The notes under the pieces were generated by a model. The model searched no databases. It worked only from the letters and a program-made list of their open reading frames with translations, and was not told the DNA's origin. Both the position numbers and the translations under genes were made by a program. Positions 36,576-64,000 of a stretch of DNA of 64,000 bases are shown here, piece after piece (positions within the stretch are counted from its first letter, which is position 1; every line of letters starts with the position of its first letter). The DNA lies in IMG/VR virus record IMGVR_UViG_3300047384_000085, positions 667 to 64,666 of that record; one strand, given 5' to 3'. This DNA comes from a virus (lineage: Duplodnaviria > Caudoviricetes).

Positions 36576-38405
36576 ATGGCGACAACGATTAAATCAACAG
36601 CGTTAGACTTTCAGGCAATTAAGAACAACCTGAAGGAATACCTTCAACAAGAAAAGGAATTTAAAGACTTTAACTTTGAAGCTTCGGGTCTTTCAAATGT
36701 TCTTGATGTGTTGGCATACAATACACACATGAATGCATTGACCGCTAACTTTGCCTTGAACGAAGCGTTTCTAGGAACCGCACAGTTGCGTAGTTCTTTA
36801 GTATCTCTTGCGGAGGGTATTGGTTATATCCCAGACAGTAAGAATGCATCTCTTGCTATGATTAAAATGTCGTTGAATTTATCTGCCGTTTCGAACCCAA
36901 GTCCTAGAATTGCACTCGCAGCTGGATACAAATTTGCGACATCTGTTGATGGTGTTGATTATACATTTCAAACAACACAAACTATTTCGGCATCAAATGA
37001 TGGTTTTGGTTTTTACGAATTTAAACAGGATAATGGATCTAACATTATTCCTATTAAGGAAGGTATTGCAAAAACTAAAACCTTTATCTCTGGTGATAAC
37101 ACAGAAAACATTACATATATTATCCCAGATAAAAACCTAGATCTTTCTACAGCGGTAGTTAAAGTATTCCCAAGTACTACTGCTATTAATTTCACAGCAT
37201 ATAGTAACATTCTAGACACTACTGTAATAAATGAGAATAGTACAATATACATTCTCAAAGAAATGCCTAATGGTCATTTCGAATTAACTTTTGGTAACGG
37301 TACTACTCTAGGAAAGACTCCTCAGCCAGGGAATAAGGTTGTTGTTGAATACTTATCTGTTGCTGGTTCGGATGCAAACTTTGCTGAAGTGTTTGAACCA
37401 GTTAGTGCTGTTGCAAATGTTGCACCCAACATCGATCAAGTTCCAACAGTTACTACAGAATCAAGAAGTTCTGGCGGAGCAGACAAAGAAACTGCGGAAT
37501 CGATTCGTAAGAACGCACCTTTCCAATATGCATCTCAGAATCGAATGGTAACTCACGCAGACTACTCTTCTTTAGTGTTACGTAACTTCTCTTCTTTGAT
37601 AAAGGATATCAAGACATGGGGCGGAGAAGACAACATTGTAAAAGAATACGGTTGTGTGTACATGTCGGTCTTATTTAATTCCGAAATACCACAGGCGACC
37701 ATAGATTCGACTAAGATATCTATACTGGATTTAGCAGAACAATTGTCCATTGCTTCTTTTTCATTAAAATTCTCTGATCCAGTCAAGACATTTATCGAAC
37801 TAGATACTAACTTTCAGTTTAACGAGAGGTTGACTTCATTGACGTTAAACACGATTACATCTGATGTTCGGGAAGTTATCCGTACATACTTCACGAATAA
37901 TACAGGAAAGTTCGGATTGTCATTCAGAAGATCCAACTTATTAACTTTGATAGATGATGTTTCTTCTGCCGTTTTATCTTCACGTACTGCTGTTAAGATG
38001 CAACAGAGAATCACGCCTATACTTGGCGGTAAGTATGACTACAAATTAAAATTCCCAGTTGATATTGCTGCTCAAGATGATGATGAATACATTGTTTCGT
38101 CAAGTAACTTTACACTAAATGGTGTTAGTTGTAAGATAAGAAACAAATTAAGTAGTAACACGTTACAAGTAATCAACCTACAGGACAACCGAGTATTGGT
38201 AGATGATGTGGGTTACTATAATACAGACGGTAATTTGCATTTGGTTGGATTTCAGGCAGATAGTCTGATATCAGGACAAACACAAATTAAAATTTCAGTT
38301 GTCGCTGCGAATCAATCTTCGATCACTCCTGTTCGGAATGATGTTTTGGAATTTGACGAAGCCGCTTCTCAGATAACTGGCGTACTAACTACAGCGACTA
38401 ACTAA
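36576..38405 (+). CDS. gp6: Baseplate wedge subunit
   Basis: LDFQAIKNNL, DFNFEASGL, LAYNTH, FGNG, SQNRMVTHADY, WGGED. Confidence 0.93.
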   Translation: MATTIKSTALDFQAIKNNLKEYLQQEKEFKDFNFEASGLSNVLDVLAYNTHMNALTANFALNEAFLGTAQLRSSLVSLAEGIGYIPDSKNASLAMIKMSLNLSAVSNPSPRIALAAGYKFATSVDGVDYTFQTTQTISASNDGFGFYEFKQDNGSNIIPIKEGIAKTKTFISGDNTENITYIIPDKNLDLSTAVVKVFPSTTAINFTAYSNILDTTVINENSTIYILKEMPNGHFELTFGNGTTLGKTPQPGNKVVVEYLSVAGSDANFAEVFEPVSAVANVAPNIDQVPTVTTESRSSGGADKETAESIRKNAPFQYASQNRMVTHADYSSLVLRNFSSLIKDIKTWGGEDNIVKEYGCVYMSVLFNSEIPQATIDSTKISILDLAEQLSIASFSLKFSDPVKTFIELDTNFQFNERLTSLTLNTITSDVREVIRTYFTNNTGKFGLSFRRSNLLTLIDDVSSAVLSSRTAVKMQQRITPILGGKYDYKLKFPVDIAAQDDDEYIVSSSNFTLNGVSCKIRNKLSSNTLQVINLQDNRVLVDDVGYYNTDGNLHLVGFQADSLISGQTQIKISVVAANQSSITPVRNDVLEFDEAASQITGVLTTATN

Positions 38406-39505
38406 TGAATGTAAATGGACATCACGACAAGACGTTACATGACTTAGGTCGAAGAGAGTTAAACCTTCGTCACTATAAGGTCGAGGAAGTCTTACCCGAT
38501 CATATTGTTGCTAGTTATCCGAAGTTAGTATCACTGTTGGAAACGTACTTTCAGTTTGAAGACCAAAGTTCGTCACCAACTGATCTTTTGAATGAACTGT
38601 TTACGTTAAGAGATATCACACAGACAGACATAGATCTGTTGTCTTTTCTTGAAGACGAGTTACTGTTAGGTCAGTCTTACTTCGAAGGATTCCAAGATAA
38701 GAGAGAGGCGGCAAAGTACTCTAATACTCTTTATAAGTCTAAGGGTACTAAGTATTCGATACAACAGTTTTTTCGTACTTTCTTTGGTATAGACCCAGAT
38801 GTGGTTTATACTAAGAACAACGTATTTAAACTTAATGAGTCTGAAGTAGGCCCATCGTCTCAGAGATATATTACGGACGATAAGTTATATCAAACATATG
38901 CAATTCAGGTGAAGAGTGAATTATCCATATCTAAATGGAGAGAAATCTATAAACTATTCGTACATCCTGCTGGCATGTACTTGGGTTCTCAGGTACAATT
39001 ACAGGGCGTAGTTGACATCGACTTCGAAATACAACCACCTCCTGGCTTGTTAGATATTCCACCACAAGAAGTGGAATGTATTGCAGATATGCCTCAGTTC
39101 GCATTCTCTGCTCACACTGCATTGTTCGATGTCCCAATGGATCATTTAGGCGGAGACGAAATGGAATTTAGAGCAACTATGGGTAACGCTAACACTGCAC
39201 CAAATGCTGGTAATGATGTGGGCGATTACGCAGATAAAACCATCGATGAGATACATGGACTACAAAGTAACATACTAGAACTACTAGAACCGAACTCACC
39301 GACATTCGATGAACATGATGATGACAGTGGTTCGTCAATGGGTCTATCAAGTCTAGAGACAATAGATCAGGATCAGTGGACTTGGCAGAATCGTATCCGA
39401 TCTGATGCGAACAATACATACATGCAGAATCACCCTAAAGGGCCGTCAATAGGCGACTCAGATGGTGAACTAACATTAGAAGAAATTATGAATAGTCTAG
39501 ATTAA
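38405..39505 (+). CDS. Baseplate wedge protein (gp7-like)
   Basis: LYKSKGTKYSIQQFFRTFF, YQTYA, FVHPAG. Confidence 0.7.
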   Translation: MNVNGHHDKTLHDLGRRELNLRHYKVEEVLPDHIVASYPKLVSLLETYFQFEDQSSSPTDLLNELFTLRDITQTDIDLLSFLEDELLLGQSYFEGFQDKREAAKYSNTLYKSKGTKYSIQQFFRTFFGIDPDVVYTKNNVFKLNESEVGPSSQRYITDDKLYQTYAIQVKSELSISKWREIYKLFVHPAGMYLGSQVQLQGVVDIDFEIQPPPGLLDIPPQEVECIADMPQFAFSAHTALFDVPMDHLGGDEMEFRATMGNANTAPNAGNDVGDYADKTIDEIHGLQSNILELLEPNSPTFDEHDDDSGSSMGLSSLETIDQDQWTWQNRIRSDANNTYMQNHPKGPSIGDSDGELTLEEIMNSLD

Positions 39506-39521
39506 ACGCTAGGTTAAAACG

Positions 39522-39529
39522 TATAAATA
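39522..39529 (+). promoter_or_regulatory. T4-type late promoter
   Basis: TATAAATA. Confidence 0.8.
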
Positions 39530-39559
39530 GAATCATAGAACTTTTAGGTAAAGGTCAAA

Positions 39560-40576
39560 ATGACAAAACAAGTATTAAATAGAGGCACAATTGCAAACGA
39601 TGGTACAGGAGATACTCTCCGTACTGCTGGTTTGAAGATCAATGCCAACTTCGATGAGTTATATCAATTTCTTGGTGGGAAGACTGACGGAACACTTTCC
39701 ACACAGATAGGAATAGAAAATGATGCGGTTGTTTTTGAAGGAACTTCATCTGATGATTTTGAAGTTAGATTGAAGGCTGCGAACGCAACGGCGGATCGTA
39801 TTCTTACTCTTCCAAATGCGGATGGTGAATTTGTACTTACGGTTGCGACCCAGACATTGACCAATAAGACAATTACCAACCCGACCGTTTCCGATCTAGT
39901 AATTACTGACGGTGGTTCTAACCACGAATATTCTCTAATTGCGTCTGACATAGCTGCGGATAGAAACATAAACTTGCCGGCATTATTAGATAGTGATGAA
40001 CTTACGTTTAATGACCACACACAGACATTAACAAATAAAACTTTAACCTCTCCAACAATTTCTTCACCGAGAGTTAAAGAGGCTATTAGAGATTCTAGTA
40101 GTAACGAATTAATTGATTTCTCACCCACAACTAGTGCAGTCAATCATATACAGGTTGTCAACAACGTTGATGGTTTAAACCCTAGAATCTCTGCGGTGGG
40201 TGATAATACCAATATCAACTTAGAGTTATATGGTAAAGGTACTGGTTCGGTTGCGGTAGAATCTAAACTGACATTAAAAACAGAAGGTATCACCACTAGT
40301 GGCGTTACTGTTAGTCTTAATGCACCAATATCATATTTCAATAAAGCTTCAGGTACTAACACTGCCACTTTACCGAATGGTGTAGAAGATGGTGAAGTCA
40401 AATATTTAATAAACATAAACCAAACTGGTAGTTATACAATTGCTATTACTGGTAACCCATCTGGTGTACAGTCAGTAGTATTACCTCCGAACAAGTCGGT
40501 TCAACTGATTTGGGCATCTGTGGGCGGAACACAAAATTGGTACGTAATTTCAAATAACGGCGCAACGATTTCATAG
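39560..40576 (+). CDS. Baseplate tail-fibre connector (gp9/gp10-like N-terminus)
   Basis: NDGTGDTLRTAGLKINANFDELY; two TQTLTNKT repeats. Confidence 0.75.
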   Translation: MTKQVLNRGTIANDGTGDTLRTAGLKINANFDELYQFLGGKTDGTLSTQIGIENDAVVFEGTSSDDFEVRLKAANATADRILTLPNADGEFVLTVATQTLTNKTITNPTVSDLVITDGGSNHEYSLIASDIAADRNINLPALLDSDELTFNDHTQTLTNKTLTSPTISSPRVKEAIRDSSSNELIDFSPTTSAVNHIQVVNNVDGLNPRISAVGDNTNINLELYGKGTGSVAVESKLTLKTEGITTSGVTVSLNAPISYFNKASGTNTATLPNGVEDGEVKYLININQTGSYTIAITGNPSGVQSVVLPPNKSVQLIWASVGGTQNWYVISNNGATIS

Positions 40577-40585
40577 GAAAAGTAA

Positions 40586-42040
40586 ATGAGTGCTATAGTA
40601 ACAGACAAAATTAAAAAACAATTTCTTGAAGACATGTTCAAGGATTTCGATTCGGCTGGTGTAAGGTATTATGCTGGTATTGCTCGTTCAGAACAATGGG
40701 ATGATCAAGACAATGTTGCGACTCCGCAACCACGTAAAAGAGATGAACGTGATGCACGAATGAACATGCAATCTGTTAAAAATATTACTGACAGATCTTT
40801 CGTTGTTCCTCGTAGTAACTGGTCTTCTGGTACACAGTACTCGCCCTATGACGATAATCACATTGGTTATCCGTTACAACCTTACTATGTAATGAATAGT
40901 AACCAAGAAATATACGTTTGTTTACAACAAGGTAGAGATGCAAACGGAACTCCAGTAAACTCTACAACTCAACCTACTGGTAACACTACAGGAGTACCGT
41001 TCACTACTGCGGACGGATATGTTTGGAAATTCTTATATTCTATCGGTGCGTTACTTGCATCTAAATTTTTGTCTTCTTCATACATACCTGTACAATTAGT
41101 TGATTCTGACGAAGCTGCATCTGTTGATGCGACTGCGGAACAAGTGGAACAACGTGCGGTACAATTAGCGGCAACGCCTGGTGAGATAGTAGGCGTTCAA
41201 GTAGTTGGCGGTGGTAACAATTATACAGGTACACCAACCGCAAAAATTGATGGTGATGGTACAGGCGCTGAGGTAGTTGCTATAGTTAGTGGTAACTCTG
41301 TAGTTAACTTGAGAGTTAAACAAGATTCAGACGGAAACCTTCAAGGAACTAACCCAAATGGTTGGTCAACTGGTTCATTCCGTGGTTCTGGTTACAAACG
41401 TGCTAGTATAAGTTTCACTGGTGGTGGCGGTACAGGTGCATCTGGACGAGTTATTTTAGGCCCAGAAAATGGTCTGGGTGCCGACCCAAGAGATGATTTA
41501 AAATCTGGCGCATGTATGTTTAACGCCAAGATTGATGGTGCTGAAGGTGGAGACTTCTTACTAGGTGACAACACTTTCCGTCAAGTTTTACTTTTGCGTA
41601 ATCCATTGGTTAGAGATTCTGCTAATAGATCAGAACTGGATTTCTTTACGGATGCGACAGGAAGTACTTTGGACAGAGTTATCTTAACTTCGATAAATGG
41701 TTCGTTTGTGGAAGACCAGTTCATCACTGCTCAGAACGGAGATACTCCATTCTCAAAAGCATATATCGACACGGTTGACTCAGTTTCTGTTGATGGTTCA
41801 CAAGCGAGATTATTGGTACACCAAAATGAAGGAACAGGATTCACACCCTTTATCGGTCAAAGTGTCACATTAGATGTGGCAGATGGTAATGGTACTAACA
41901 CAGGAAAGATCTTGCAAAACAATTACATTCGAGGTGAGGTAGATCCGCTTTCTGGAGAACTCCTATATATTGATAACAGAGCGGCAGTTGACCGTTCATC
42001 TGAACAAACCGAAGATTTAAAAATCGTAATACAACTCTAG
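40586..42040 (+). CDS. gp8: Baseplate wedge subunit
   Basis: VPRSNWSSG, YYVMN, YVCL, DGYVWKFLY, SGELLYIDNR...QTEDLKIVIQL. Confidence 0.88.
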   Translation: MSAIVTDKIKKQFLEDMFKDFDSAGVRYYAGIARSEQWDDQDNVATPQPRKRDERDARMNMQSVKNITDRSFVVPRSNWSSGTQYSPYDDNHIGYPLQPYYVMNSNQEIYVCLQQGRDANGTPVNSTTQPTGNTTGVPFTTADGYVWKFLYSIGALLASKFLSSSYIPVQLVDSDEAASVDATAEQVEQRAVQLAATPGEIVGVQVVGGGNNYTGTPTAKIDGDGTGAEVVAIVSGNSVVNLRVKQDSDGNLQGTNPNGWSTGSFRGSGYKRASISFTGGGGTGASGRVILGPENGLGADPRDDLKSGACMFNAKIDGAEGGDFLLGDNTFRQVLLLRNPLVRDSANRSELDFFTDATGSTLDRVILTSINGSFVEDQFITAQNGDTPFSKAYIDTVDSVSVDGSQARLLVHQNEGTGFTPFIGQSVTLDVADGNGTNTGKILQNNYIRGEVDPLSGELLYIDNRAAVDRSSEQTEDLKIVIQL

Positions 42041-42054: not shown

Positions 42055-45000
42055 ATGTCAACGACTTATACAGAAAACACCTTTGCTACCACCTATAAAG
42101 ATGATTACGATAGAACTAAAAATTATCATAAGATTCTATTCAATAGTGGTAAAGCGCTACAAGCAAGAGAGTTAACTCAGTTACAATCAGTAATACAAGA
42201 ACAATTTTCTCAACTTGCTGGGAACTTATTCACTGAGGGTGCATCTATATCCCCAGGCTCCTTCCGAGTAGATAATGAATTAGAATTTATAAAAATAAGT
42301 TCTGCAACACCGTTTCCATCAGACCCAAGTGTATTAGAAGGTCTAACTTTTGAGATCGGATCTACTGGAAGCAACAAAGAATTTCTGGTCGTCAATGCAA
42401 TTGCTGCTGAAGGAGATGATCCAGATACACTAATTGTTGAGTATACCAAAGATCAGGTAGGTGGAGAGACTGGTACTAGGGCTCAAGCCGGAGAATCTTT
42501 GATTGGTGCTTCTGCCGGAACCACGTACACATTTAGTGTCCAGTCTGAAAACACTTCTACTAATTCTGCTGTCGGTCTAGGTTCTGCTATATCTGTTGAC
42601 GAAGGTCATTTCTTCATACAAGGTCACGTTGTTTATTGTCCTCCACAAAAACTAATTTTCCGTAAATATGAAACTAATCAATCGAGTCGTTTCGGTTTTA
42701 AAGTTACGCAAGATATTGTAAATGTCGATGATGACGTATCATTGTATGATAATCAGGGAGAGACTCCAAATCTAACATCGCCTGGTGCTGACAGATATCG
42801 TATCCAACTCACTCTTGCTGATGCGAGAGTAGTTTTAAATGAAGATGATTTCATTCCGATCGTTGAAGTTGTGGGTGGTCAAATTGTTTCTAAAACAACG
42901 ACTAGTTCTGGATTTAAATCTATTAGAGATGAAATGGCGATCAGAACGTATGAAGAATCTGGTGATTACGTTAAACGTTATTTCCGTGCTTCATTTGAAC
43001 CCAATGATGACACAACTTTCAAGTTAAAAGTATCGCCTGGAACCGCATACGTTAGGGGTTATCGTATTAATAAAGATGCCTCTACGACTATCATTTCTGA
43101 TAAACCGACCGATACTATTTCTAGGAATAACGACACCGTAACAGTTGACTATGCAAACTTTTTATTATATACTGACGGTAAGGGTAGTATGCCCGACTTC
43201 TCGACATGTGAAAAAATAGACATTCATGATGCTGCCAATGGTGGTGGTAACAAAATTGGTACATGTCGTGTTCGTGGTATAAACATTAGCGGTACTGTTG
43301 CTGGTACTAAAAAACTACATATTTTTGATCTACAGATAACGGACGAAACTAAGAGTATCCGTGATATTCAGTCTGTTGTGACTAATTCTGGAGCTCCGAC
43401 TACCAACTACCTAAACATATATCGAACTAACAACAGTACTAAACTTTATCAAAGTGAAAAGAAAGGTGTTATCTTCGATAGTCCCTTACCTAGACCCAAG
43501 ACGTTTAGTGATCACGTATACACTGTAGCTAAAAAGAAAAGTTTTAGTCTTTCAGGAGCAACTACGCACTCATTCAGTAACAGTAGTTCTGACACCAGTC
43601 TATCTAACGGTAGTGCATGGATCGTTTCATCTGCGGATTCTGATGAGGTTTCTGATGCGGTTGTCACTTTCAGTGGAAATGATGCCGAGATTTCGGGTCT
43701 GGTTGACGGTGAAACTTACGACTTAATGTATTTCGAACAACTCAGTGCTCCAGTTAGAAAGAATAAAACACTGAAAACACATACCGCCACTTATAATATA
43801 GATTCTGACGGTGTAGGTCAAGAGTTAATTGAGTTAGGAAAAATCGACCTTTATAGAGTTAATTCTGTTAGAGAAGATAGCGCAAACGGTAGAAATGTAC
43901 TAGGTGTGTTTGGTATTGATAATGGACAAAGAGATACTCATTACGATGAAGCTAAACTACTCTTCAGGGGTGGTGGATTAAGGGATAGTTCTTCGGTTGT
44001 TCCGATCCACGTTTCTTTTGATTTCTTTGAACACACAGCAGGGGACTTCTTTGACGTTAGTTCATATAGTCTTCCTTATGTAGATATACCAGTACATAGA
44101 ACTGCGAATAGTAGACTAGTAAATTTACGTGATGTGGTTGACTTACGTCCATCTATCAATCCATCTACTGGTGCGTTTAGTGTTTCTGACGTATTGGGTC
44201 TACCACAGTCAAACTCAGTCATAACCTGTGACGGTGAGTATTTTATGCCTCGTCTTGACAAATTAGTATTGTCAAAAGGTGGTGAGTTACGTTTGATTCA
44301 GGGTGTATCTTCAATGCAACCTAAGTATCCATCAACTCCTGTAGACTGTATTGATCTCTACAAGATTCATATGAATGCGAACACAATGCATGTTAAAGAT
44401 CTTGAGACTACTATTATTCCAAGACGTGGTTACACGATGGAAGATATCAATAAGATCGAAAAACGAATCGATAAACTAGAGGAAGCAACAACGCTTTCCC
44501 TATTAGAGTCTAACGCAGCTAACGAAAGAATATTTGACGATACTGGTGAAGAAAGAATACACACAGGTTTCTTTGTAGATAACTTCAAGAATCAGAGATT
44601 CACTGATACTAAGAGTATTGAACACAGAGCGTCAATGGATCCATCTAAGGGACTCATCAGACCATCATACAAATGTAAGTCGATTTTCTTAAAATATGAC
44701 AGTGCCGAATCAACAGATACCGTTAAGAAAGGCGATAACATCTATCTTAACCATACCGAGACTCCTTATTTGTCTCAAACTATGGCATCTAAGACTATCA
44801 ATGTTAACCCATTCCACGTTGAGAAGACTCATGGTGATTTAGTATTATCACCGTCCAAAGATACTTGGAAGAATTTAGATCACCAAGCACCACTTGTGAT
44901 TGATGCTGGTACAGAGTTTAATACTGATGCCGCTTTACTTTGGAACGACTGGGAAAACAGTTGGGGTGGTATAGCACCTAATGACCTACAAGTAGGTATG

Positions 45001-48345: not shown

Positions 48346-48568
48346 TAAATTAATACCAGTAGAGGGTCATGGGGATTTAGCCCGTGACCCAAATACTGGG
48401 GCTATAGTTAATATAAATAGTAAAAAGATACAAGAATCTCGTCAGAGAAGAAATATCAAAAGACAACGTTTACAAGAACAAGAAGAATTGAAAGCAAAAG
48501 TTGAAAACTTAGAGTACGATATCTCTGATATAAAAGACATGCTTTCGCAACTTATAGAGAAACTATAA
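48329..48568 (+). CDS. Small coiled-coil protein
   Basis: VEGHGDLARDPNTGAIVN followed by heptad repeats. Confidence 0.7.
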   Translation: MHLQTDKLIPVEGHGDLARDPNTGAIVNINSKKIQESRQRRNIKRQRLQEQEELKAKVENLEYDISDIKDMLSQLIEKL

Positions 48569-51231: not shown

Positions 51232-51258
51232 TATAAACCAATTCAAGGTTGCGACTGA

Positions 51259-54226: not shown

Positions 54227-54292
54227 TATAAATAGATAACAAAGTAAAAGTTTTTATCTAACAACAACCTTGTATATACAAGGTAGATAAAA
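54227..54292 (+). promoter_or_regulatory. Late promoter followed by a leader hairpin
   Basis: TATAAATA at 54227-54234; perfect palindrome accttgtatatacaaggt at 54267-54284. Confidence 0.7.
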
Positions 54293-54335: not shown

Positions 54336-55805
54336 ATGTCATCCACCATTAAAATCAAACGGAGCAATACGTCTGGTAATGCTCCTGACACCAATAACAT
54401 TGTAGAAGGCGAACTCGCCCTCAATACCGCAGATGGTATCCTATACTCTCGTGGCGGTAATGATATATTTGAAGTAGGCGCAAACTTAACTACTCCATTT
54501 ACTGTCAACCCATCTACCGCAGCAGACACTATTACTCTTGGATCGACTACTCAAGAAGGCACTATCACTCTTGGTAGAAGTACCTCAACCAACTTAATTA
54601 ACATTGGTAATGCTCAGACAGCAAGTGGTGCAACACAAACGATTAATATCGGTGGTAACAGCGCCAGTGGCGGTGACACTGTATTGAATTTAGCCGCAAA
54701 TTCAAATACTGCCGCAGATACAGCAGTGACTATTGGTTGCTCTAATGGAACTGGTACTCACAGTGTTGCGATTCGTGGTGCTAGTACATTTACGAATGGT
54801 GCGGTTGCCTTTGATGGTAACAACTTTTCTGTAAATCCAGCAGGAACCACTAACACCATCACTATGGGTAAAACAACTGGCACAGGTTTAATTACAATCG
54901 GTCGAAGTACCGCTAATCAAGATATATCTATTGGTTCAGCTACAGGTGGTTCAGGTGCATCCCAAACCACCTCGATTGGGTGCAACATGGGTTCAGGCGG
55001 GACAAAGACCGTCAATATCGGTTCTTTAGGTAGTAGTGCTGGCGCCAGATATATAAATATCGGTACAAACGCAAGCACTAATGGTTTAAGCGCTACGACT
55101 ACGATTGGTAGTTTACATACAGCTGCAGTGAGCAATAATTATCTCTATGGTATTACGAGGATTAAAAAGACCAATGGACAACCTTTAATTGTAGAGAGTA
55201 CGTCATCTACTACTAATACTACTTTACAAGGTATTCAATTATACAATACTACTAGTGCTTCAGCCTTTAAAATCGGCAATTACTTGTCGTTGGCTCAAGT
55301 TCAAAGTTATTATGGTTCTGGTTCTGGCGCATCGATACAATTTTTATATGGTCAGAGCGGAGAAAAACATCGGTTAGATGCAAGTGGTAAATTTGGGATA
55401 GGTGTCTCGTCCCCACTTGAAGCACTTCACGTTAATGGTAATATCATTGCTACAGGTAATGTGACTGCATATTACTCTGACGAAAGACTGAAAGACTTTA
55501 AGGGAGCAATTCCAGATGCTCTAGATAAAGTTAATAAACTCACAGGATATTACTATAAACCAAACGCATTAGCGCATTCTTTGGGTGTGGATAATACCGA
55601 ACTAGAGGTCGGTGTATCTGCTCAAGAGGTTGAGGAAGTATTACCTGAGATTGTAACTAAATCTGCGGTAGGTCAAGACGAGTTCGGAGAAGATTATAAA
55701 AGTGTTTCTTATGACAAACTAACACCCCTGTTGATAGAAGCAGTAAAGGAGTTGACCCAAAAGGTTGCGTATCTAGAATCTAAAATTAGTGAGAAAGGCG
55801 AATAA
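54336..55805 (+). CDS. Tail fibre with a C-terminal intramolecular chaperone (peptidase S74)
   Basis: IKIKRS...GELALN N-terminus; T/G/S-rich INIG repeats; YYSDERLK...GVSAQEV...YDKLTPLLIEAVKEL. Confidence 0.88.
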   Translation: MSSTIKIKRSNTSGNAPDTNNIVEGELALNTADGILYSRGGNDIFEVGANLTTPFTVNPSTAADTITLGSTTQEGTITLGRSTSTNLINIGNAQTASGATQTINIGGNSASGGDTVLNLAANSNTAADTAVTIGCSNGTGTHSVAIRGASTFTNGAVAFDGNNFSVNPAGTTNTITMGKTTGTGLITIGRSTANQDISIGSATGGSGASQTTSIGCNMGSGGTKTVNIGSLGSSAGARYINIGTNASTNGLSATTTIGSLHTAAVSNNYLYGITRIKKTNGQPLIVESTSSTTNTTLQGIQLYNTTSASAFKIGNYLSLAQVQSYYGSGSGASIQFLYGQSGEKHRLDASGKFGIGVSSPLEALHVNGNIIATGNVTAYYSDERLKDFKGAIPDALDKVNKLTGYYYKPNALAHSLGVDNTELEVGVSAQEVEEVLPEIVTKSAVGQDEFGEDYKSVSYDKLTPLLIEAVKELTQKVAYLESKISEKGE

Positions 55806-55807
55806 TT

Positions 55808-56248
55808 ATGGCAGTAGTTTGGAATATAGTAAAGGTTGAATCGAATATCTCTGATGGTGCTATCAAAATGGTACATTGGGAAGCTTCAGATTATGAGACG
55901 GAACAAGTTGGCGACAAACAGGTAATTCACCGTGGTAGACGTTATGGCAGTGTTCATATTGATGCAGATCCTTCTTCGGAAAACTACATTGCATGGGCGG
56001 ATGTCACTAAAGATATTGTAATCGGTTGGGTTAAATCTTCGCTCGGAGAGGAAGAAGTTTCAAATACCGAATCGCAAATTGCAGGAGATATTGCTTTATC
56101 TAAAACACCTGTCGAACATAACATTAATCCTTGGGATGTAGTCCCTGAAGTAGACACCAGTGAAGAAGTCGTCAACGATGAGACGCCCGATGAGGAAGAA
56201 AATAATGTCGATTCTGATTCGACAGCACACATCAATGAAGGTGAATAG
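55808..56248 (+). CDS. Tail-fibre-associated small protein
   Basis: VHW...YIAWADVTKDIVIGWV...PW; directly follows the fibre gene. Confidence 0.6.
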   Translation: MAVVWNIVKVESNISDGAIKMVHWEASDYETEQVGDKQVIHRGRRYGSVHIDADPSSENYIAWADVTKDIVIGWVKSSLGEEEVSNTESQIAGDIALSKTPVEHNINPWDVVPEVDTSEEVVNDETPDEEENNVDSDSTAHINEGE

Positions 56249-56250
56249 TA

Positions 56251-57513
56251 ATGTCAGCATCTATAATGACGGTTAGAGGTCGTTTACAGGAAGCCGACGA
56301 ATTTATCTTAGAAAGTGACATAAGATACCAAAACGATACGAGTGGGTCTACTGGAACTGGTGTTGGTTTGGTAGTGTATAGTGGTCAAACAATTACTGCT
56401 TATGTTAAGACTGTTGGCGTGCCAGGAACTTCCACATATCCTCTTATAAACTGTACGGTAGATTCTTTAACTACCTCAACACAGAAATCTACTGGTCATC
56501 ACTTTAGCATCTTAAAACTTAGTTTCGGTTCGTCTAGTACTGGTACTTTTCAGTGTTACCTTAGTACATCAGCTAATAAAATTCTTCAGATTAGTGGTTC
56601 ATACTCCACAGGAACTTCGACCGATGCTGTTCAACCAATGACACTCGGAAATGAGTCTGGGTCAAAATTTTACAACAACGTTGGGAATCGTCTTGATGAT
56701 ACTAATGGTGAAACGATAAGACTGAATGACACGGACGTGAGAGCAATAGCAGAAGAGACCACAAATTTGTCCACCATCGATTTTGACGACTTTTATGGTA
56801 AAGAACGTAACTTGGGCGGAATACCTGTAACCTACACTGGCACAAATTCATATACCGACACTGCTATTCCCAGTCATTCTGACCTTGGTGGTACTGGTTC
56901 CTCTTCAAGCACAATCACCAATAACCCTTTACTATTTGTAAGAAGGGTAAAGTTGACGTATAGTGGTGCATCCGCATCAAAGTATTTGCACATTTCGGCT
57001 CAGAGAGCTAATCCTGCGATAGGTTCATATTTTCATGGAGATGCTCAAATTTTCGGATATTCTATTAATGGTACGTTTCATGATATTGACACGTTTGGGT
57101 CAACTACCAGTACTAATAGTAGTTGGAGAACTAAGAGTGGCGTCAATCCCACAACTACTGATGCTGATGAATGGCATAATAGTACTGGTGCTGAGATCAA
57201 TGTTTATCATAACAGAAGTGGTACTGACGGAAGGTTTACTATATTTCATAGTAATGCTTACAACGTTGGCAGAACTGCCAGTGGTGGCACTGGAAGAATA
57301 CCTAATCCATTCCTCACTTCTCTAACTGGAGATAATATAGGGTACGGATACTTTGAAACCAGTGGTGGGTCGATCGCCTCAATGAGTAGTGTTTACTATC
57401 ATGCTCGATCACCGCTATTTTATTTAAACGATGGGGAGACCGTAGAAGTTTGGTATGGAGTGGACTGTGCTTCTTTAGATTTTATTAAGTTTGATATTAT
57501 CGGTGTTAGTTAG
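56251..57513 (+). CDS. Putative tail-fibre tip / receptor-binding protein
   Basis: S/T/G-rich; IRLNDTDVR...IDFDDFYGK motif resembling gp38-like adhesin attachment segments. Confidence 0.5.
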   Translation: MSASIMTVRGRLQEADEFILESDIRYQNDTSGSTGTGVGLVVYSGQTITAYVKTVGVPGTSTYPLINCTVDSLTTSTQKSTGHHFSILKLSFGSSSTGTFQCYLSTSANKILQISGSYSTGTSTDAVQPMTLGNESGSKFYNNVGNRLDDTNGETIRLNDTDVRAIAEETTNLSTIDFDDFYGKERNLGGIPVTYTGTNSYTDTAIPSHSDLGGTGSSSSTITNNPLLFVRRVKLTYSGASASKYLHISAQRANPAIGSYFHGDAQIFGYSINGTFHDIDTFGSTTSTNSSWRTKSGVNPTTTDADEWHNSTGAEINVYHNRSGTDGRFTIFHSNAYNVGRTASGGTGRIPNPFLTSLTGDNIGYGYFETSGGSIASMSSVYYHARSPLFYLNDGETVEVWYGVDCASLDFIKFDIIGVS

Positions 57514-57561
57514 GTACAATATATATAATAAACATCATCATTAAACAATTAGGAGATTGAG

Positions 57562-58044
57562 ATGAGTAGTAGAAAATGGTTAGATAATGCTTTTTGGGAA
57601 GCACCAGAAACCAAAGATGACGTGACTTGCATTCTGCAAATCATTGACGACAATGACAGAAAAGTCGAACAAGTAATGAGACTTAAAAAGTTCACTAAAT
57701 CTGGAAATGAAAATACAGATTTCGCAGAACTTATTGAAGTTCTTGGTGAAGACCTAATCACCAAAAATACTGAACAACGTCTAAAACGCAAAGCTGCTGA
57801 GAAAGAAGAGAAACGAGTTCGTGATATCGAACACGAGAAAGCACGTGCCTTAGAAAAACTTTTCGGATATAAAATGGAAGCATTCGAAGTTGAAGAAATT
57901 AAGAAATGTAAAAACCGAAAACTAAAGGCAAAACTTAGACGAGCAAAAAGTAAAATTGAAGTCAATCTATATTCGATGATGATTCTTCAAGAACATATTG
58001 CTAATGAGGAGAAAGAGAATGCCGAAGAAGAAACAGAAAAGTAA
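57562..58044 (+). CDS. Hypothetical protein (basic, helical)
   Basis: LEKLFGYKMEAFEVEEIK...LRRAKS; overlaps the glycosyltransferase start. Confidence 0.7.
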   Translation: MSSRKWLDNAFWEAPETKDDVTCILQIIDDNDRKVEQVMRLKKFTKSGNENTDFAELIEVLGEDLITKNTEQRLKRKAAEKEEKRVRDIEHEKARALEKLFGYKMEAFEVEEIKKCKNRKLKAKLRRAKSKIEVNLYSMMILQEHIANEEKENAEEETEK

Positions 58045-58783
58045 AGGATTTCTGGTTGTTGCTTCTCGCAAAAGATCTTTCTATGTTTACGCAACCAATC
58101 TAATAGATTCGATTAGAGATTACTATGAAGACGCTAATATAACCTTAGTGTGTGAAGAGTGGATGTTGGATGACACTGGAAGAGATTTAGCGGACAATAT
58201 AATAATTTGTGATGATCATTACCGTGCCAAACTCTGGGGCATGGCTCAATCTCCTTATGACATCACGATGTATGTTGACGCTGACATGCAGTGCGAACAC
58301 GAAGATGTCGTAAAGATCTGGGATGAAATGAAAGACCACGATGTTGTTTTCTCTGCATTGACAAAAGAACGTGATTACATTTACGCTGAATATGAATTTG
58401 ACACTCCAGATCAAGGAAAGATATCTTTTGATCTGTGTGGTGGTGTCTGTCTTTACGATATGACTAAACCTATTGTCCGTGAGTTCATGGAAGATTGGTG
58501 GGATCTCACCAGAAGGCAAATGGATCATAAATGGTGGCCCGAAGGTTACCCAAAAAGTCTTAAACAGTGGGATCAATTCTCTCTTTGGTGGTTGACGAAC
58601 AAAGAAGAAAAATATAAAGATTTGAAGATTGGTATATTTGATGATGATATGAGATGGAATTATTATAATGCTTGGAACTACGAAATTACTAAACCAGATA
58701 ACCCTATTATTTTAAGACATTTTTCTTGTGGTGTTTTCAAAGATTTTCATTACTATACAGATATAGGAAGTAATGAGAGGTAA
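57998..58783 (+). CDS. Glycosyltransferase, GT-A fold (GT8-like); likely start near 58019
   Basis: RAKLWGMAQSPYDITMYVDAD, GGVCLY, WDQFSLW, RWNY. Confidence 0.78.
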   Translation: MLMRRKRMPKKKQKSKGFLVVASRKRSFYVYATNLIDSIRDYYEDANITLVCEEWMLDDTGRDLADNIIICDDHYRAKLWGMAQSPYDITMYVDADMQCEHEDVVKIWDEMKDHDVVFSALTKERDYIYAEYEFDTPDQGKISFDLCGGVCLYDMTKPIVREFMEDWWDLTRRQMDHKWWPEGYPKSLKQWDQFSLWWLTNKEEKYKDLKIGIFDDDMRWNYYNAWNYEITKPDNPIILRHFSCGVFKDFHYYTDIGSNER

Positions 58784-59507
58784 TATTATTATGGATTTTC
58801 AAAAAATGCGAAGCATACCAATAAAGAATAAAGAACTTCTCTCTATCTTAGACAGTTTTGTTCGTGTTAGGACATATAACGAGGAAGCGTTCACGAAGTA
58901 CATGCATTGTGCAGGCAATCAACATTCTGATGCTGATAAGGCGAAATTTGTTTCTGATGAATACCTTCACGAAATCATGAGTATGGGAGATGATCATGGT
59001 GGTTTCCCAGAGACTATGCACGGTTATGAAATGAGAATGTGTAACAGGGAACACCAATTCTTCAAGAGAACAATACCGAAAACTCCTGATGAGATTAGTT
59101 ATAGATCGGAGGTAATGTCAAAATTACAAGACTCTCAAGAAGATATAATGACTTGGTTGGGTTGTAGAAATAATGCATTATCAGCAGTTTATCCACCAAG
59201 TGGGTTTATCTCTTGGCACAATAATGCAAATGCAGCTGCATGGAATTTAATTTTCACTTACAGCGAAACAGGTGATGGTTACTTCAAATATTGGGACACG
59301 GAAAAGAAAGAAATTGTTTACATGCATGATGAACCAGGCTGGCAATGCAAAGCTGGATACTTTGGTCATTATGGAGAACCCGATAAACTTTTATATCACG
59401 CAGCCGCTTCTAAGTGTTGGAGACATACAGTTTCTTTTTGTTTTGATAGATCAGAAACAAGTGAATTTATTAGAGAAGAGATAATTGATGAAATTAGTTC
59501 AGAATAA
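58773..59507 (+). CDS. Cupin / 2OG-Fe(II) oxygenase-like protein
   Basis: YPPSGFISWHNN...LYHAA...WRHTVSF matches a double-stranded beta-helix H-x-(D/N)...H...R layout. Confidence 0.55.
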   Translation: MRGNIIMDFQKMRSIPIKNKELLSILDSFVRVRTYNEEAFTKYMHCAGNQHSDADKAKFVSDEYLHEIMSMGDDHGGFPETMHGYEMRMCNREHQFFKRTIPKTPDEISYRSEVMSKLQDSQEDIMTWLGCRNNALSAVYPPSGFISWHNNANAAAWNLIFTYSETGDGYFKYWDTEKKEIVYMHDEPGWQCKAGYFGHYGEPDKLLYHAAASKCWRHTVSFCFDRSETSEFIREEIIDEISSE

Positions 59508-59520: not shown

Positions 59521-59528
59521 TATAAATA
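59521..59528 (+). promoter_or_regulatory. T4-type late promoter
   Basis: TATAAATA. Confidence 0.8.
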
Positions 59529-59560
59529 AAACAAAGAAAACTACTTTTTAGAATAGGGTT

Positions 59561-59917
59561 ATGGCAGATTACGAAGATTTTTCAATCGATCAAGGTGCAG
59601 ATGTTGCAATAGAATTACATCTCAAGGATCCTGATGGTTCAGTAAAAGACCTTACAGGTTTTTCAGTTATAGCTATGATGAAGAGAACATATAACTCAGG
59701 TGCAGAAGACACAATTGAGTTTGCATGTTCTATAGAAGAACCTGCTTCTGATGGTGTAGTCATTTTGGGTTTGACTAATCAACAAACAGACAGTCTAAAT
59801 ACTACTGGTAGGTACGTTTATGATGTTGAATTACACTTTATTGATGGAGAAGAAAATACTATTATCGAACGTATCTTAGAAGGTAAAATAAAAGTCAATC
59901 CATCGGTAACTAGGTAG
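59561..59917 (+). CDS. Ig-like fibre adaptor protein (BppU N-terminal-like)
   Basis: IDQGAD...DLTG...GRYVYDVE...RILEGKIKVNPSVTR. Confidence 0.65.
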   Translation: MADYEDFSIDQGADVAIELHLKDPDGSVKDLTGFSVIAMMKRTYNSGAEDTIEFACSIEEPASDGVVILGLTNQQTDSLNTTGRYVYDVELHFIDGEENTIIERILEGKIKVNPSVTR

Positions 59918-59923
59918 ATCGGT

Positions 59924-60289
59924 ATGACGTTAGATGTAACATCGGGTCGAGGAAAAACCGTAACCGAAGTCAAGGTCAACGGAAAAACTAGAGTACACTC
60001 TTTAAAAGTCGGCCGACCAGTTAGAAACGTTCGGAGTTCTGCGCCTAATATTAACAATATAGAAGGGGTAAGTACCGCTTCGAAAGAAGATGGTAATATC
60101 TTAATTTATAATGCAACCTCTGATACATTCGAAGTATCCCCTCTTGCTACAGCTAATATTGACAATATTACAGGAGTGGATACAAGTACAAAACAAGACG
60201 GAAGTGTCTTGGTTTATAACGAAACTTCCGACACATTCGAAGCAACACAGAATTTAGATAAACAGTTCATTAACGGAGGAAACTTTTAG
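59924..60289 (+). CDS. Small fibre-associated protein with an internal duplication
   Basis: NINNIEGVSTASKEDGNILIYNATSDTFE repeated as NIDNITGVDTSTKQDGSVLVYNETSDTFE. Confidence 0.65.
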   Translation: MTLDVTSGRGKTVTEVKVNGKTRVHSLKVGRPVRNVRSSAPNINNIEGVSTASKEDGNILIYNATSDTFEVSPLATANIDNITGVDTSTKQDGSVLVYNETSDTFEATQNLDKQFINGGNF

Positions 60290-61689
60290 TGACAACTGAA
60301 ATTAAAATCAAACGGTCAGGGTCATCAAATGCTCCAACAGCTTTAGGTAGTGGTGAACTGGCTTATAGTTGGAGTGGTGGTACAGGCGGTAAGTTATTTA
60401 TCGGTTGGGGAAATGAAAATAATGACGGTGAAGCCGCAAACATTGACCCCATCGGTGGTAAATATTATACTGACTTACTAGGTTCAACTGCTGGCACTAT
60501 TGCTGGTTCCAAAGCGGTTATTCTAGACGCTAATTCAAAAGTGAATCAATGGATCGTTGATAACATTACTATTGACGGCAATACCATCAGCACAACAGAT
60601 AATAACGGTAATCTTTTATTAAGTCCACATGGATCTGGTGTAGTCTCTGTTGAAGGTTCTAAGATATCGAATGTTGTAACACCAACTGCTGACTCTGATG
60701 CGGCAACTAAAGGATATGTTGATACTCAACTCAGTGGAGTTTCGTCAACGATCACTTTAACCGATGATGCCTCTAACACTGATGCTTATACTACAGGTAA
60801 CGCACTAACCTTTGCTGGTGGTACTGGTTTGACTTCTGTTGTTACTGATGATACAGTAACGTTCAACATGGACAACACTTCAGTATCATTTGGTGGTGTA
60901 TCTGTTGCGTTAGGTGGGACTTCTGCTCAACCAGCATTTGACTTAACAAATGCGACTAGTTACCCAACTTCATCTCTGAGTGGTACGATCACCAATGCTC
61001 AACTTGCTGGTTCTATCGAAAACGGCAAACTCGCAAATAGTGCAGTAACAGTTGGTACTACCGCAATCTCACTTGGTGGTTCTTCTACTGCACTAGCTGG
61101 TTTAACCCAAGTTGATGTTGACAATATTCGAATCGATGGTAACACAATCAGTACAACTGACGCTGGTGAATCAACTCTTTTCTTGAATCCAGGCCCTGTT
61201 GGTGATTCGGGTGAAGTTGTTATCCTAGGTGATTTAACTGTTCAAGGTACTACAACAACAATAAATAGTACTGAAGTAACAATTAATGATCTTGTTCTTA
61301 CCCTCGCTGACAGTGCAGATGATGGAACAGCAGCTAATGGTGCTGGTATCATTATTGGTTCATCTTCATTCAGTAGTCCACCATCTCTTACATATGATGG
61401 ATCGAACGACAGATGGGTATTCAACAAAACCGTTGAAGCAACGATTCATGATCTATCTGAAACAATTGATGATCGTGTTAATACTTTATTTACAGATGGT
61501 CAAAGTATTGGTTCTGTTTACAATGACGCTGCAAACACACTTACGGTTAATGTTGATATTGCGACTACAAGTGTGATAGGTGCGGCGAAGTTTGACGGTC
61601 TTGCTGAATCAGATGGTGGATCAACCAATCAGTTTACTCTTACCTCTGGCGGAGTTAGAGTTACCGCTCTTGACGGTGGAACATACTAA
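60289..61689 (+). CDS. Fibre protein (neck/whisker region)
   Basis: IKIKRS...GELAY N-terminus, DNIxIDGNTIS repeats, DAATKGYVD, GDLTVQGTTTT, DGGTY end. Confidence 0.75.
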   Translation: MTTEIKIKRSGSSNAPTALGSGELAYSWSGGTGGKLFIGWGNENNDGEAANIDPIGGKYYTDLLGSTAGTIAGSKAVILDANSKVNQWIVDNITIDGNTISTTDNNGNLLLSPHGSGVVSVEGSKISNVVTPTADSDAATKGYVDTQLSGVSSTITLTDDASNTDAYTTGNALTFAGGTGLTSVVTDDTVTFNMDNTSVSFGGVSVALGGTSAQPAFDLTNATSYPTSSLSGTITNAQLAGSIENGKLANSAVTVGTTAISLGGSSTALAGLTQVDVDNIRIDGNTISTTDAGESTLFLNPGPVGDSGEVVILGDLTVQGTTTTINSTEVTINDLVLTLADSADDGTAANGAGIIIGSSSFSSPPSLTYDGSNDRWVFNKTVEATIHDLSETIDDRVNTLFTDGQSIGSVYNDAANTLTVNVDIATTSVIGAAKFDGLAESDGGSTNQFTLTSGGVRVTALDGGTY

Positions 61690-61708
61690 TTAATTTAAGA
61701 GAAAAGAT

Positions 61709-62485: not shown

Positions 62486-62486
62486 T

Positions 62487-64000
62487 ATGGCAACAAATCC
62501 GTATATAAGCAAAAAAGTACGATCCGAACAAAGTCTTTACGAAGATCTCGTAATCGAGTCTCTGAAGTTCTATGGTGAGGACGTATATTACATTCCACGT
62601 GAGATCGTTAACAAAGACACCATCTTTGCTGACGATGTTCCTTCACGTTTTTCAGATGCATATAAGATCGAGACTTACATCGAGAATACCGAAGGGTTTG
62701 ATGGAGAGGGTGACCTATTCACTAAATTCGGTATCGAGTTGCGTGATCAAGCAACATTCGTATTTGCACGTAGACGTTGGAAGAAACTAATTGGCGACAA
62801 CCTAGCAGAGGTTGGGTTCCGTCCACGTGAAGGCGATATCATTTATCTACCTATGTCGAACTCTATGTTCGAAGTATTGAAGGTAGAGACCGAGACTCCG
62901 TTCTATCAACTAAGTCAACTACCGACATTCCGTTTACAGTGTGAGTTATTCGAATACAGTGACGAAGACTTCGATACTAACATTGCATCGATTGATGCGA
63001 TTGAGTATGAAGGTGCATATCAGTACAAGGTTACAATGGAACCTGCTGAACAAAACACACTTGCAATCAATCTAGGTGATCAACTAAACATTAACACCTT
63101 TAGTGGTGCGTTAAAATCAGCGGGTAGTATAGCAATTAGTGGTCAAGGTTATGATTCTGCGCCTACGATAACGGTCGATCCTCCCAAAACGCTTTCTTTA
63201 TTTGGCGAGAACTCTTTATCATCTGACCTTAATAGATCGTTTAATGATACGTTTTTATTCACTAACGACAACGGTTCGGTAGAATTATTTTTCTACCCTA
63301 ACGACTTGCCCCCTACAGATAATCCATTACAAGCATTACTAACGGTTGGCGGAAACGGAACGTTAGATCCAAATATCATGATCTGGGGTATTAATGACGA
63401 AGGACATATCGTACAATCTTTTGTAAATGAACTTGGTTTTAATCGTTTAGATAACGTACCTTATGACATTGGTAAATGGAACCATATAGTTATCGGTGTT
63501 GATAGCAATGGTTCTGGTGTAAACAGCCAACTTTACTCTTATCTAAACGGAAGAAAGATTTTAGATAGTGATTGTGGTAGAGACCTTACTTTGTTTGGAA
63601 CGAACGGATTTGCTCTAGGTACTGATGCTATGCGAACAGTAGGTGATAATACCTACGAGGCGTTTAACGGTAAAGTAGATGAGTTTCGTGGTTTGACTGG
63701 ATCTATTTCCGAACTCATTCCGCCTAGATTAAAATCCCCAGAAGATATTAACATCACATTAACCCACGGTTTTGCCGGCAATTATTACGTTGATAGTGCC
63801 GCTATAGACAGATTGGGATTAGTAGGTAAAGATTCAGTTAGTGTTGCAGTGGATAGTGATGGTTACGGTAACTCACCTACTTCTTATACGAATCTTATTG
63901 CCAACCCTACAATAAATGCGTTAATTGGGGACACTGTAAAGATAACTAATAAGATTAGTACTGATGGTGATAGTGACGTAACTTATCCGATTACAGACTA
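62487..64000 (+). CDS. gp14: Neck protein gp14 with a C-terminal extension containing a LamG-like domain (runs off the window)
   Basis: Hand translation: MATNPY...EQSLYEDLVIESLKFYG.DVYYIPR...LFTKFG...RPREGDIIY...PFYQL...CELFEYS; then VELFFYP...GKWNHIVI...YLNG...FNGKVDEFR. Confidence 0.9.
   Translation, partial: MATNPYISKKVRSEQSLYEDLVIESLKFYGEDVYYIPREIVNKDTIFADDVPSRFSDAYKIETYIENTEGFDGEGDLFTKFGIELRDQATFVFARRRWKKLIGDNLAEVGFRPREGDIIYLPMSNSMFEVLKVETETPFYQLSQLPTFRLQCELFEYSDEDFDTNIASIDAIEYEGAYQYKVTMEPAEQNTLAINLGDQLNINTFSGALKSAGSIAISGQGYDSAPTITVDPPKTLSLFGENSLSSDLNRSFNDTFLFTNDNGSVELFFYPNDLPPTDNPLQALLTVGGNGTLDPNIMIWGINDEGHIVQSFVNELGFNRLDNVPYDIGKWNHIVIGVDSNGSGVNSQLYSYLNGRKILDSDCGRDLTLFGTNGFALGTDAMRTVGDNTYEAFNGKVDEFRGLTGSISELIPPRLKSPEDINITLTHGFAGNYYVDSAAIDRLGLVGKDSVSVAVDSDGYGNSPTSYTNLIANPTINALIGDTVKITNKISTDGDSDVTYPITD

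Follow-up and report, generated by a model that had tools for sequence, protein, structure and literature searches.

Phage-encoded virion glycosylation is known from mycobacteriophages, siphoviruses of actinobacterial hosts whose glycosyltransferase (GT) genes were reportedly linked to glycosylated capsid and tail proteins by Freeman et al. in 2023 (Cell Host Microbe); that work is said to define no tripeptide sequon. The O-glycosylation sequon of Bacteroidota is reported to be D-(S/T)-(A/I/L/V/M/T) (PMC8550257), and SdgB, a GT-B enzyme, is reported to O-GlcNAcylate a minimal DSD peptide (PMC8561734). The present analysis concerns the tripeptide D-S-[D/A] (DSD or DSA, together DS[DA]) in the virion proteins of a T4-like myovirus of the Kyanoviridae type. 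The stretch analysed, positions 667 to 64,666 of IMG/VR virus record IMGVR_UViG_3300047384_000085, is 64,000 nucleotides long; it is referred to as the window, covers almost all of a 64.7-kb viral contig and holds phage DNA only. DS[DA] is enriched in exposed virion proteins and domains and restricted to them, is specific for Ser followed by Asp or Ala at +1, has originated repeatedly and independently, and is confined to one clade; there is good support for the motif having been selected in this clade on virion surfaces that are exposed. It is tentatively proposed, as a reading that is plausible but short of probable, that D-S-[D/A] serves as the sequon at which a putative GT-A enzyme encoded among the late genes (the late GT) O-glycosylates Ser on these surfaces.

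Enrichment of the motif in the window

Early genes, including gp32 and a sugar cluster, occupy 1-22.7 kb of the window. Genes for the hub and inner baseplate follow at 22.7-38.4 kb (tape-measure-like, hub, tube-like, gp2, gp4, gp48-like, gp5-like with amidase, gp25-like and gp6-like), and 38.4-64 kb encodes the outer baseplate, a giant VrlC-like protein, fibres and neck. For gp8, identity to the Phage C48C1 protein is 35%, and to the proteins of cyanophages, an OM43 phage and others it is 24-29%.

The 17 open reading frames (ORFs) from 38405 onwards (8343 amino acids, aa) contain 21 DSD and 9 DSA, which account for 30 of their 52 DS dipeptides; the 34 early ORFs of 1-22.7 kb (7174 aa) contain 26 DS, none with D or A next (Fisher test, P 1.5e-7). 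The preliminary description of this DNA had counted about 21 DSD and about 9 DSA by hand, which proved exact, and had put the early DS dipeptides at roughly 25, none followed by D or A. When residues are shuffled within each protein, 4.16 DSD are expected (standard deviation 2.0) and none of 2000 shuffles reaches 21, so that the enrichment outlasts a composition-shuffled control; the Poisson P for DSD is 3.7e-9, and the smallest value for any tripeptide in 500 shuffled sets is 1.6e-6. DSA is raised as well, with 9 observed against 3.21 expected (P 0.005). The Thr analogues are not raised in the late ORFs of the window (DTD 4 against 5.07 expected, DTA 2 against 3.93), as had been stated earlier for DTD. 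Only GNY and YTG exceed DSD in enrichment within the window, and both owe their counts to a single short repeat in ORF 51259.

By ORF, DSD occurs once in each of 38405, 39560, 51259, 55808 and 60289, twice in 40586, three times in 62487, four times in 42055 and seven times in 48568. The features that carry the motif are given below, with each site placed at the first nucleotide of its DSD or DSA codons; family values are the numbers of DS followed by D or A among orthologues.

38405-39505, plus strand: outer baseplate ORF, earlier labelled gp7-like; DSD 39455; family 27 of 56
39560-40576, plus strand: gp9-like baseplate wedge / tail-fibre connector (PHROG 677); DSD 39989; family 25 of 48
40586-42040, plus strand: gp8 baseplate wedge (PHROG 438, E 8.5e-73); DSD 41102, 41324; DSA 40649, 41615
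42055-48345, plus strand: VrlC-like structural protein, 2096 aa (PHROG 358); DSD 43636, 43801, 46024, 47248; DSA 43876, 44698
48568-51231, plus strand: fibre/spike protein, 887 aa, gp5-like beta-helix (DUF2345, DUF5649); DSD 48682, 49834, 49981, 50239, 50632, 50767, 51094; DSA 49654
51259-54216, plus strand: fibre protein, 985 aa, with a GNY/GDY/GNF short repeat; DSD 51667; DSA 51745
55808-56248, plus strand: DUF7936 protein; DSD 56210
60289-61689, plus strand: structural protein (PHROG 15769); DSD 60691; DSA 61309; family 53 of 97
62487-63998, plus strand: gp14 neck protein with a long C-terminal extension, running past the window end (PHROG 460, E 4.5e-76); DSD 63564, 63852, 63969; DSA 63153, 63792

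The serines at the 30 sites are encoded by 14 AGY and 16 TCN codons and the aspartates by both GAT and GAC, in keeping with the varied codons noted earlier. A motif at the DNA level is ruled out by this mixture, and the mixed Ser codons therefore place selection at the peptide level. Internal repeats were also ruled out as the cause of the enrichment in the window; five pairs of sites have similar flanks, of which three are overlapping windows of sequence and two are real, both in ORF 48568. The hub and baseplate ORFs of 22.7-38.4 kb (tape measure, hub, gp5-, gp25- and gp6-like) are unenriched, with D or A after 3 of 20 DS against 3.2 expected; virion against non-virion is therefore the wrong contrast, and exposed against hidden the right one.

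Homology of the gp14 protein to its family is confined to the first ~236 residues, and at least 270 further residues hold all five of its DS[DA] sites. ORF 51259-54216 has no family match; it contains 20 GNY, 9 GDY and 8 GNF, often 4-12 residues apart (a YTGNY-type micro-repeat), and tripeptides of this type are the most enriched in the structural set.

The motif across the clade and in control phages

Among 20 IMG/VR relatives of ORF 48568 (identity 82-28%), the ORFs around it hold DSD at 2.6 times expectation or more in 19 of the 20 loci. Pooling 80 loci centred on the late GT gives 950 DSD against 215 expected, 474 DSA against 271 and 141 DTD against 256; DS[DA] exceeds twice its expectation in 58 of these loci, and the lowest ratio is 0.98. 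The virion proteins of Phage C48C1 contain 27 DSD against 7.8 expected. In a complete 144-kb relative (G001), DSD is raised in the neck, fibres and outer baseplate (19 against 4.5 expected) and DS[DA] in the head and tail (11 against 3.3); the inner baseplate has 0 against 2.9 expected, and all other ORFs together have 5 DS[DA] against 13.8.

Seven T4-like phages that lack the late GT served as controls, with observed and expected DSD of 2/1.6 in T4, 4/5.2 in P-SSM7, 3/5.1 in S-RIM2, 1/2.1 in Ochrobactrum OC, 2/2.9 in Melnitz, 0/3.3 in AG-345-F15 and 1/2.8 in AG-345-E02. The orthologues of the exposed families in control phages carry DS[DA] at 4 of 40 DS; for gp8, the fraction is 48 of 86 in the clade against 2 of 24 in six control phages. 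A general trait of T4-like structural proteins is ruled out, as all seven controls are without enrichment.

Avoidance of DSD in non-virion proteins was considered and rejected: G001 has 2 against 8.0 expected in these proteins (P 0.004) and C48C1 has 9 against 8.8, so avoidance is not claimed. Four adjoining small non-virion ORFs of G001, at 48610-52369, carry one DSD each (the late sigma factor gp55, a cytidylyltransferase-like protein, a member of PHROG 527 and UvsY); its remaining 113 non-structural ORFs hold two DSD altogether.

Exposed and hidden proteins and domains

As the source contig is only 64.7 kb long, capsid and sheath were examined in relatives. Unique orthologues were pooled from all clade loci and each family was scored by the fraction of its DS followed by D or A; these sequence counts are not counts of events. 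The fraction is high in the sheath (215 of 333), gp15 (105 of 143), the ORF 59561-like family (30 of 43) and the ORF 48568 family (141 of 235), and is 34 of 94 in the major capsid protein. It is low in the scaffold (0 of 60), portal (8 of 158), tube (0 of 21), large terminase (0 of 15) and gp13 (4 of 22), and the late GT itself has none (0 of 59).

The same division is found within the sheath protein. Aligned to T4 gp18, 168 of 206 sheath sites fall at residues 88-345 (domains I/II) and 38 in domain III; in domain IV, 0 of 20 DS are DS[DA]. Domains I/II of T4 gp18 are described as exposed to solution, with domain IV lining the interior (Leiman et al., PMC3004832). The earlier suggestion that the motif would lie on exposed surfaces is borne out in both comparisons, by the high outer and low inner families and by the placement of the sheath sites.

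Residue specificity and repeated origin

Residue preferences were determined on representatives of the exposed families sharing less than 70% identity. These contain 94 DSD against 15.6 expected and 74 DSA against 15.2. Other residues at +1 are flat or depleted, with DSV at 16/13.6 (observed/expected), DSG at 17/17.7, DSN at 4/13.2 and DST at 10/20.0. The Thr forms are depleted (DTD 12/21.1, DTA 2/19.7), and NSD, GSD and ASD each fall below expectation. The hidden-family set contains no DSD (7.7 expected).

Sheath sites are spread over 29 alignment columns, and at least 68 parsimony changes are needed on a tree of 77 sequences; this, together with the many families involved, agrees with the earlier proposal that the motif was selected repeatedly across proteins. 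The mean number of sequences per sheath column is 7.1 for DS[DA], compared with 2.0 for DT[DA] and 1.8 for [NE]S[DA]. Orthologues of ORF 48568 hold 8-10 sites each (1.2-1.7 expected), of which subclades at 39-49% identity share 2-3; DSD and DSA replace each other at the same alignment column, and one conserved DSA is encoded with either AGT or TCT. In the non-repetitive families 142 distinct contexts were found, with D and A at +1 in a ratio of 76:66, and their flanks carry little signal save for Gly at 2.3-2.6 times expectation at +2/+3. Such behaviour, with many contexts and nearly signal-free flanks, fits a short recognition motif; an extended structural element would leave more signal in the flanks.

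The late glycosyltransferase and its neighbours

The gene for the candidate modifying enzyme has fibre genes on one side and neck genes on the other; the enzyme and its immediate neighbours are as follows.

54227-54234, plus strand: TATAAATA, late-promoter-like; the last such site before the unit 54336-59507 that holds the late GT, with the next at 59521
57562-58044, plus strand: highly charged ORF, 160 aa, no family match; always directly upstream of the late GT
58019-58783, plus strand: predicted GT-A (GT8/GT77-like) glycosyltransferase without prior annotation, candidate modifying enzyme; D94-x-D96 and H241 invariant
58773-59507, plus strand: prolyl-4-hydroxylase (P4H)-like protein of predicted 2-oxoglutarate (2OG) oxygenase fold; downstream of the late GT in every locus examined

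The glycosyltransferase ORF is listed from a TTG at 57998; following the Atlas record, its probable start is Met8 at 58019. ORF 58019-58783 is confidently predicted to have the fold of a GT-A nucleotide-sugar transferase: its AlphaFold2 model has a mean predicted local distance difference test score (pLDDT) of 89.1, and Foldseek returns 322 PDB matches at E<=0.001. Retaining GT-A enzymes lead these matches, with E ~5e-8, template modelling (TM) scores of 0.47-0.55 and 10-15% sequence identity: glycogenin, LgtC, XXYLT1, alpha-1,3-galactosyltransferase and the catalytic domain of UGGT. The closest Atlas clusters are Nucleotid_trans/GT8 (score 0.97). D94, D96 and H241 are unchanged in 26 sequences. 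By sequence the protein was assigned to no described family: its best Pfam match is Glycos_transf_2 (E 0.0086; 16.5 bits, under the cut-off of 23.3), NCBIfam and PHROG give no match, a profile search of the PDB gives none below E 0.2, and hhalign against the GT8 ORF of the window gives a probability of 1.4%, a non-significant match in which the DxD motifs align.

There are 373 homologues of ~242 aa, none bearing a name. One of 50,697 GenBank phage records (C48C1) contains the late GT, as do 292 IMG/VR stretches, in which identity is never below 62%, and a search of viral contigs for remoter homologues returned the same clade only. It is 65-83% identical across lineages in which ORF 48568 is 28-35% identical.

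The oxygenase-like protein was modelled with a pLDDT of 94.7 as a double-stranded beta-helix. Foldseek matches it to PHD2, a Pseudomonas P4H, AlkB and the viral collagen prolyl hydroxylase (vCPH) of PBCV-1 (E 1e-5 to 2e-4, TM 0.3-0.43); neither it nor its paralogues match any Pfam family. In 35 sequences H149-x-N151 never varies, and H209 and R217 hardly do. G001 has two further oxygenase-like paralogues, at 27832-28506 and 52373-53014, which makes three copies per genome with one always beside the late GT.

The octamer TATAAATA, which we take to fit the T4-type late-promoter consensus, occurs at 12 sites in the window against 5.2 expected, mostly just 5' of ORF starts on the coding strand (examples are 14545, 27728, 36082, 39522, 48412, 54227 and 59521). 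Since the copy at 54227 heads the block with the late GT, late co-expression of the enzyme with a fibre gene is plausible.

Proposed mechanism

It is proposed that, late in infection, the Ser of D-S-[D/A] would receive an O-linked sugar in the cytoplasm. The modifying enzyme would be the clade-specific GT-A (GT8/GT77-like) product of ORF 58019-58783, seemingly co-transcribed with fibre genes; the adjoining prolyl-hydroxylase-like oxygenase may work with it, and the early cluster of sugar-nucleotide and GT25 genes may supply or extend the sugar. The outcome would be a glycan coat over the outer domains of the sheath, gp15, the capsid, outer baseplate, fibres and neck extension. We infer that the enzyme acts on protein and that DS[DA] is its acceptor, and any identity given to the sugar would have the same standing. 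The broader picture, an abundant marine T4-like clade with its own sequon-directed cytoplasmic O-glycosylation, a glycosyltransferase possibly coupled to a hydroxylase, and a 'glycan shield' over the whole exposed virion, is possible and is held a little more hesitantly than the sequon itself. The sites of such a shield would turn over at constant number, by analogy with enveloped animal viruses.

The preliminary description had looked to the many glycosyltransferases of the window for the source of the glycan. The link to a glycosyltransferase is retained, with the difference that the best candidate is the late GT at 58019-58783, which had been overlooked, rather than the early GT25 and GT8 genes at 3.6-13.3 kb.

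Several observations weigh against the glycosylation proposal. The within-protein shuffle is a crude null where proteins are rich in repeats, and GNY, YTR and LDA are enriched to the same extent as DS[DA] or more in the exposed representatives. The sorting of families into exposed and hidden was made after the family fractions had been seen, and the alignment of the variable sheath domains onto T4 is approximate. Three large structural proteins of C48C1 have no DS[DA] (0 of 7, 0 of 8 and 0 of 3 DS), and the depletion of DSD in non-structural proteins is seen in G001 and absent in C48C1. Single DSDs stand in the non-virion proteins gp55 and UvsY of G001; the earlier statement that the motif is enriched only in virion proteins thus holds for the early ORFs of the window, which have none, and fails for the unenriched hub and inner-baseplate ORFs and for these two proteins and two small ORFs beside them. 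The glycosyltransferase and the motif coincide in a single clade and therefore represent one evolutionary event, not independent replicates; the idea that the motif travels with a phage glycosyltransferase agrees with the clade having both and with seven controls having neither, and goes no further than this one clade. In the oxygenase-like protein HxN stands where the family has HxD, with Asn in the place of the carboxylate ligand, so that the iron triad is incomplete. The acceptor of the late GT could equally be the host envelope, DNA or a small molecule.

Alternative explanations

The alternative that survives best, although it is considered unlikely, is a surface motif selected without covalent modification, for cation binding in seawater, for charge or hydration against aggregation, or for docking; the glycosyltransferase would then act elsewhere, on the host envelope, DNA or a fibre-bound ligand. 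The data show selection and surface restriction, not chemistry, which this explanation accommodates, and DxD motifs often serve as cation ligands. DAD is indeed raised in the exposed representatives (35 against 16.0 expected), and the Gly excess at +2/+3 is as found in DxDG turns. A plain DxD cation site needs no Ser, however, and DND (3 against 14.6) and DTD are depleted, with DGD barely raised (27 against 19.9). DSA, which has no second carboxylate, is nearly as common as DSD (66 against 76 contexts), and the flanks show no extended ligand pattern.

Less likely again is a structural idiom of the clade, a helix N-cap or tight turn with a folding role only, spread by duplication of repeats and by exchange of fibre-gene modules. 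In C48C1, three fibre proteins have tandem coiled-coil repeats that do hold many of the sites, at apparent helix starts ('T DSD ITSATNSV...LI DSA DATAIV', 'NT DSD ALDSLTEIV'), and the window sites 'EV DSD LGERTSL' and 'IK DSD LNTLADRL' resemble helix starts as well. Some DSD columns of ORF 48568 alternate with GND, GGD or GGN, as expected of beta-helix turns, and several sites are kept down to 30% identity; the repeats and the alternating columns both count against glycosylation. An idiom of this kind would leave the non-repetitive globular proteins unexplained (65% of DS in the sheath, 73% in gp15 and 56% in gp8), along with the 142 contexts without flank signal and at least 29 independent sheath positions, and only two pairs of sites in the window are repeats. 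Thr is an equally good helix-cap residue; here it is depleted, and seven other T4-like phages with the same folds lack the motif.

A different modification is improbable: either the kinase-like ORF 14559-15437 would phosphorylate the Ser, or the P4H-like family would hydroxylate the Asp beside it, with no glycan or with a glycan on hydroxy-Asp. Acidic contexts suit acidophilic kinases and a P-loop kinase-like ORF is present in the window; it lies in the early region, however, and the acidic enrichment at +3 that CK2-type sites need is absent. For hydroxylation, the P4H-like oxygenase is always 3' of the glycosyltransferase, G001 has its two further paralogues, and viral Asp/Asn beta-hydroxylase clusters come up as a weak Atlas lead (0.87). 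Against it stand HxN instead of HxD in 35 of 35 aligned sequences, the low TM scores of the Foldseek matches (0.3-0.43) and the single Asp of DSA.

Modification of virion proteins by a Bacteroidota-type general O-glycosylation system of the host can be set aside as very improbable, because, although DSA conforms to the sequon as reported (PMC8550257), DSD as the main form lies outside it and the preferences at Thr, Val and +1 Thr (DTA 2 against 19.7, DTD 12 against 21.1, DSV 16 against 13.6, DST 10 against 20.0) contradict it. The preliminary description had cited this sequon as background; the motif does not conform to it, as the Thr analogues and DST are depleted, DSV is at expectation, and D is the commonest residue at +1. 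The Bacteroidota system also works outside the cytoplasm, on exported proteins, whereas tailed-phage virions assemble in the cytoplasm.

Significance

A literature search returned no report of glycosylated virions of T4-like or marine phages, of a phage DSD motif, or of this enzyme family. Should D-S-[D/A] prove to be a sequon, no acceptor motif for phage virion glycosylation would have been defined before it, and the case would be the first of virion glycosylation in T4-like or marine phages, involving an enzyme family with 373 unnamed homologues and ~300 viral contigs. Glycan sites on phage particles would become predictable from sequence. There would be consequences for how stable and sticky virions are, for grazing, and for the way hosts and defence systems in the sea recognise them; the enzyme and tag (~250 aa and three residues) would also form a compact pair for glyco-engineering. 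Even without glycosylation the pattern is unusual and in need of explanation, as exposed surfaces of many unrelated folds have acquired the tripeptide again and again, and only in one clade.

Other features of the window

The early region carries one further group of genes that bears on sugar chemistry.

2689-13315, plus strand: early sugar-metabolism cluster (Pfam/PHROG matches)

It encodes radical SAM/SPASM, GT8, a fusion of HAD and sugar-phosphate nucleotidyltransferase, a methyltransferase-like protein, a class-3 lipase (lipase_3) and a PHROG glycosyltransferase, together with four GT25-like ORFs, two above and two below the Pfam cut-off; GT25 is present in the contigs of four of five long relatives. 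It is possible that the cluster supplies a glycan, for which the host envelope, DNA or a virion glycan could be the target. The zeta-toxin/AAA_33-like P-loop kinase ORF 14559-15437 lies directly 3' of the TATAAATA at 14545. The small ORF 1376-1702 has a weak, sub-threshold EF-hand match (E 0.009).

The tail fibre at 54336-55805 contains no DS dipeptide. Its C-terminal 120-160 residues match S74 peptidase / endosialidase intramolecular chaperone ends, namely those of L-shaped and long tail fibres of Klebsiella, Aeromonas and Synechococcus phages.

Comparison with known systems

SdgB appears to be a closer precedent than the Bacteroidota sequon. In the staphylococcal SdgB/SdgA system, which modifies Ser-Asp repeat adhesins, a cytoplasmic enzyme glycosylates Asp-flanked Ser and DSD is sufficient; the phage shares this motif, enriched 5-6-fold, and the match is one of motif only. 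The enzymes differ, as SdgB is a GT-B protein with an inserted dimerisation domain and the phage candidate is predicted to be GT-A. The substrates differ as well: SdgB modifies a stalk with a long run of tandem SD repeats, whereas the phage sites are isolated tripeptides over many folds and accept A at +1. No GT-B family was found among the window ORFs scanned with Pfam, a scan that did not include a search aimed at SdgB homologues.

The Bacteroidota sequon resembles the phage motif in having three residues with Asp first and a hydroxyl residue second, and DSA fits it; the phage motif differs in that Thr is depleted both as the hydroxyl residue and at +1, V at +1 is flat, and D is the dominant +1 residue. 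Among the sequon +1 residues tabulated (A, V and T), only A is enriched in the phage. Compared with the mycobacteriophage systems, the late GT family is without a homologue outside its own clade among the 50,697 phage records.

The phage, with a P4H-like oxygenase beside a GT8/GT77-like gene, recalls systems in which a hydroxylase and a glycosyltransferase modify proteins (collagen, Skp1, plant extensins and giant-virus collagen-like proteins), and the fold matches of the oxygenase-like ORF include the viral collagen prolyl hydroxylase of PBCV-1. In eukaryotes, PF03407 and GT8 relatives modify hydroxyproline-bearing proteins. The phage differs in that its motif contains no Pro or Lys and its oxygenase has HxN for HxD. 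Compared with the retaining GT-A enzymes of GT8/GT24 (glycogenin, LgtC, UGGT and XXYLT1), the late GT is only 10-15% identical and falls under every Pfam, NCBIfam and PHROG model threshold; the predicted fold is shared, D94-x-D96 and H241 are candidates for the DxD and C-terminal His of these enzymes, and several of the latter act on proteins or protein-linked glycans.

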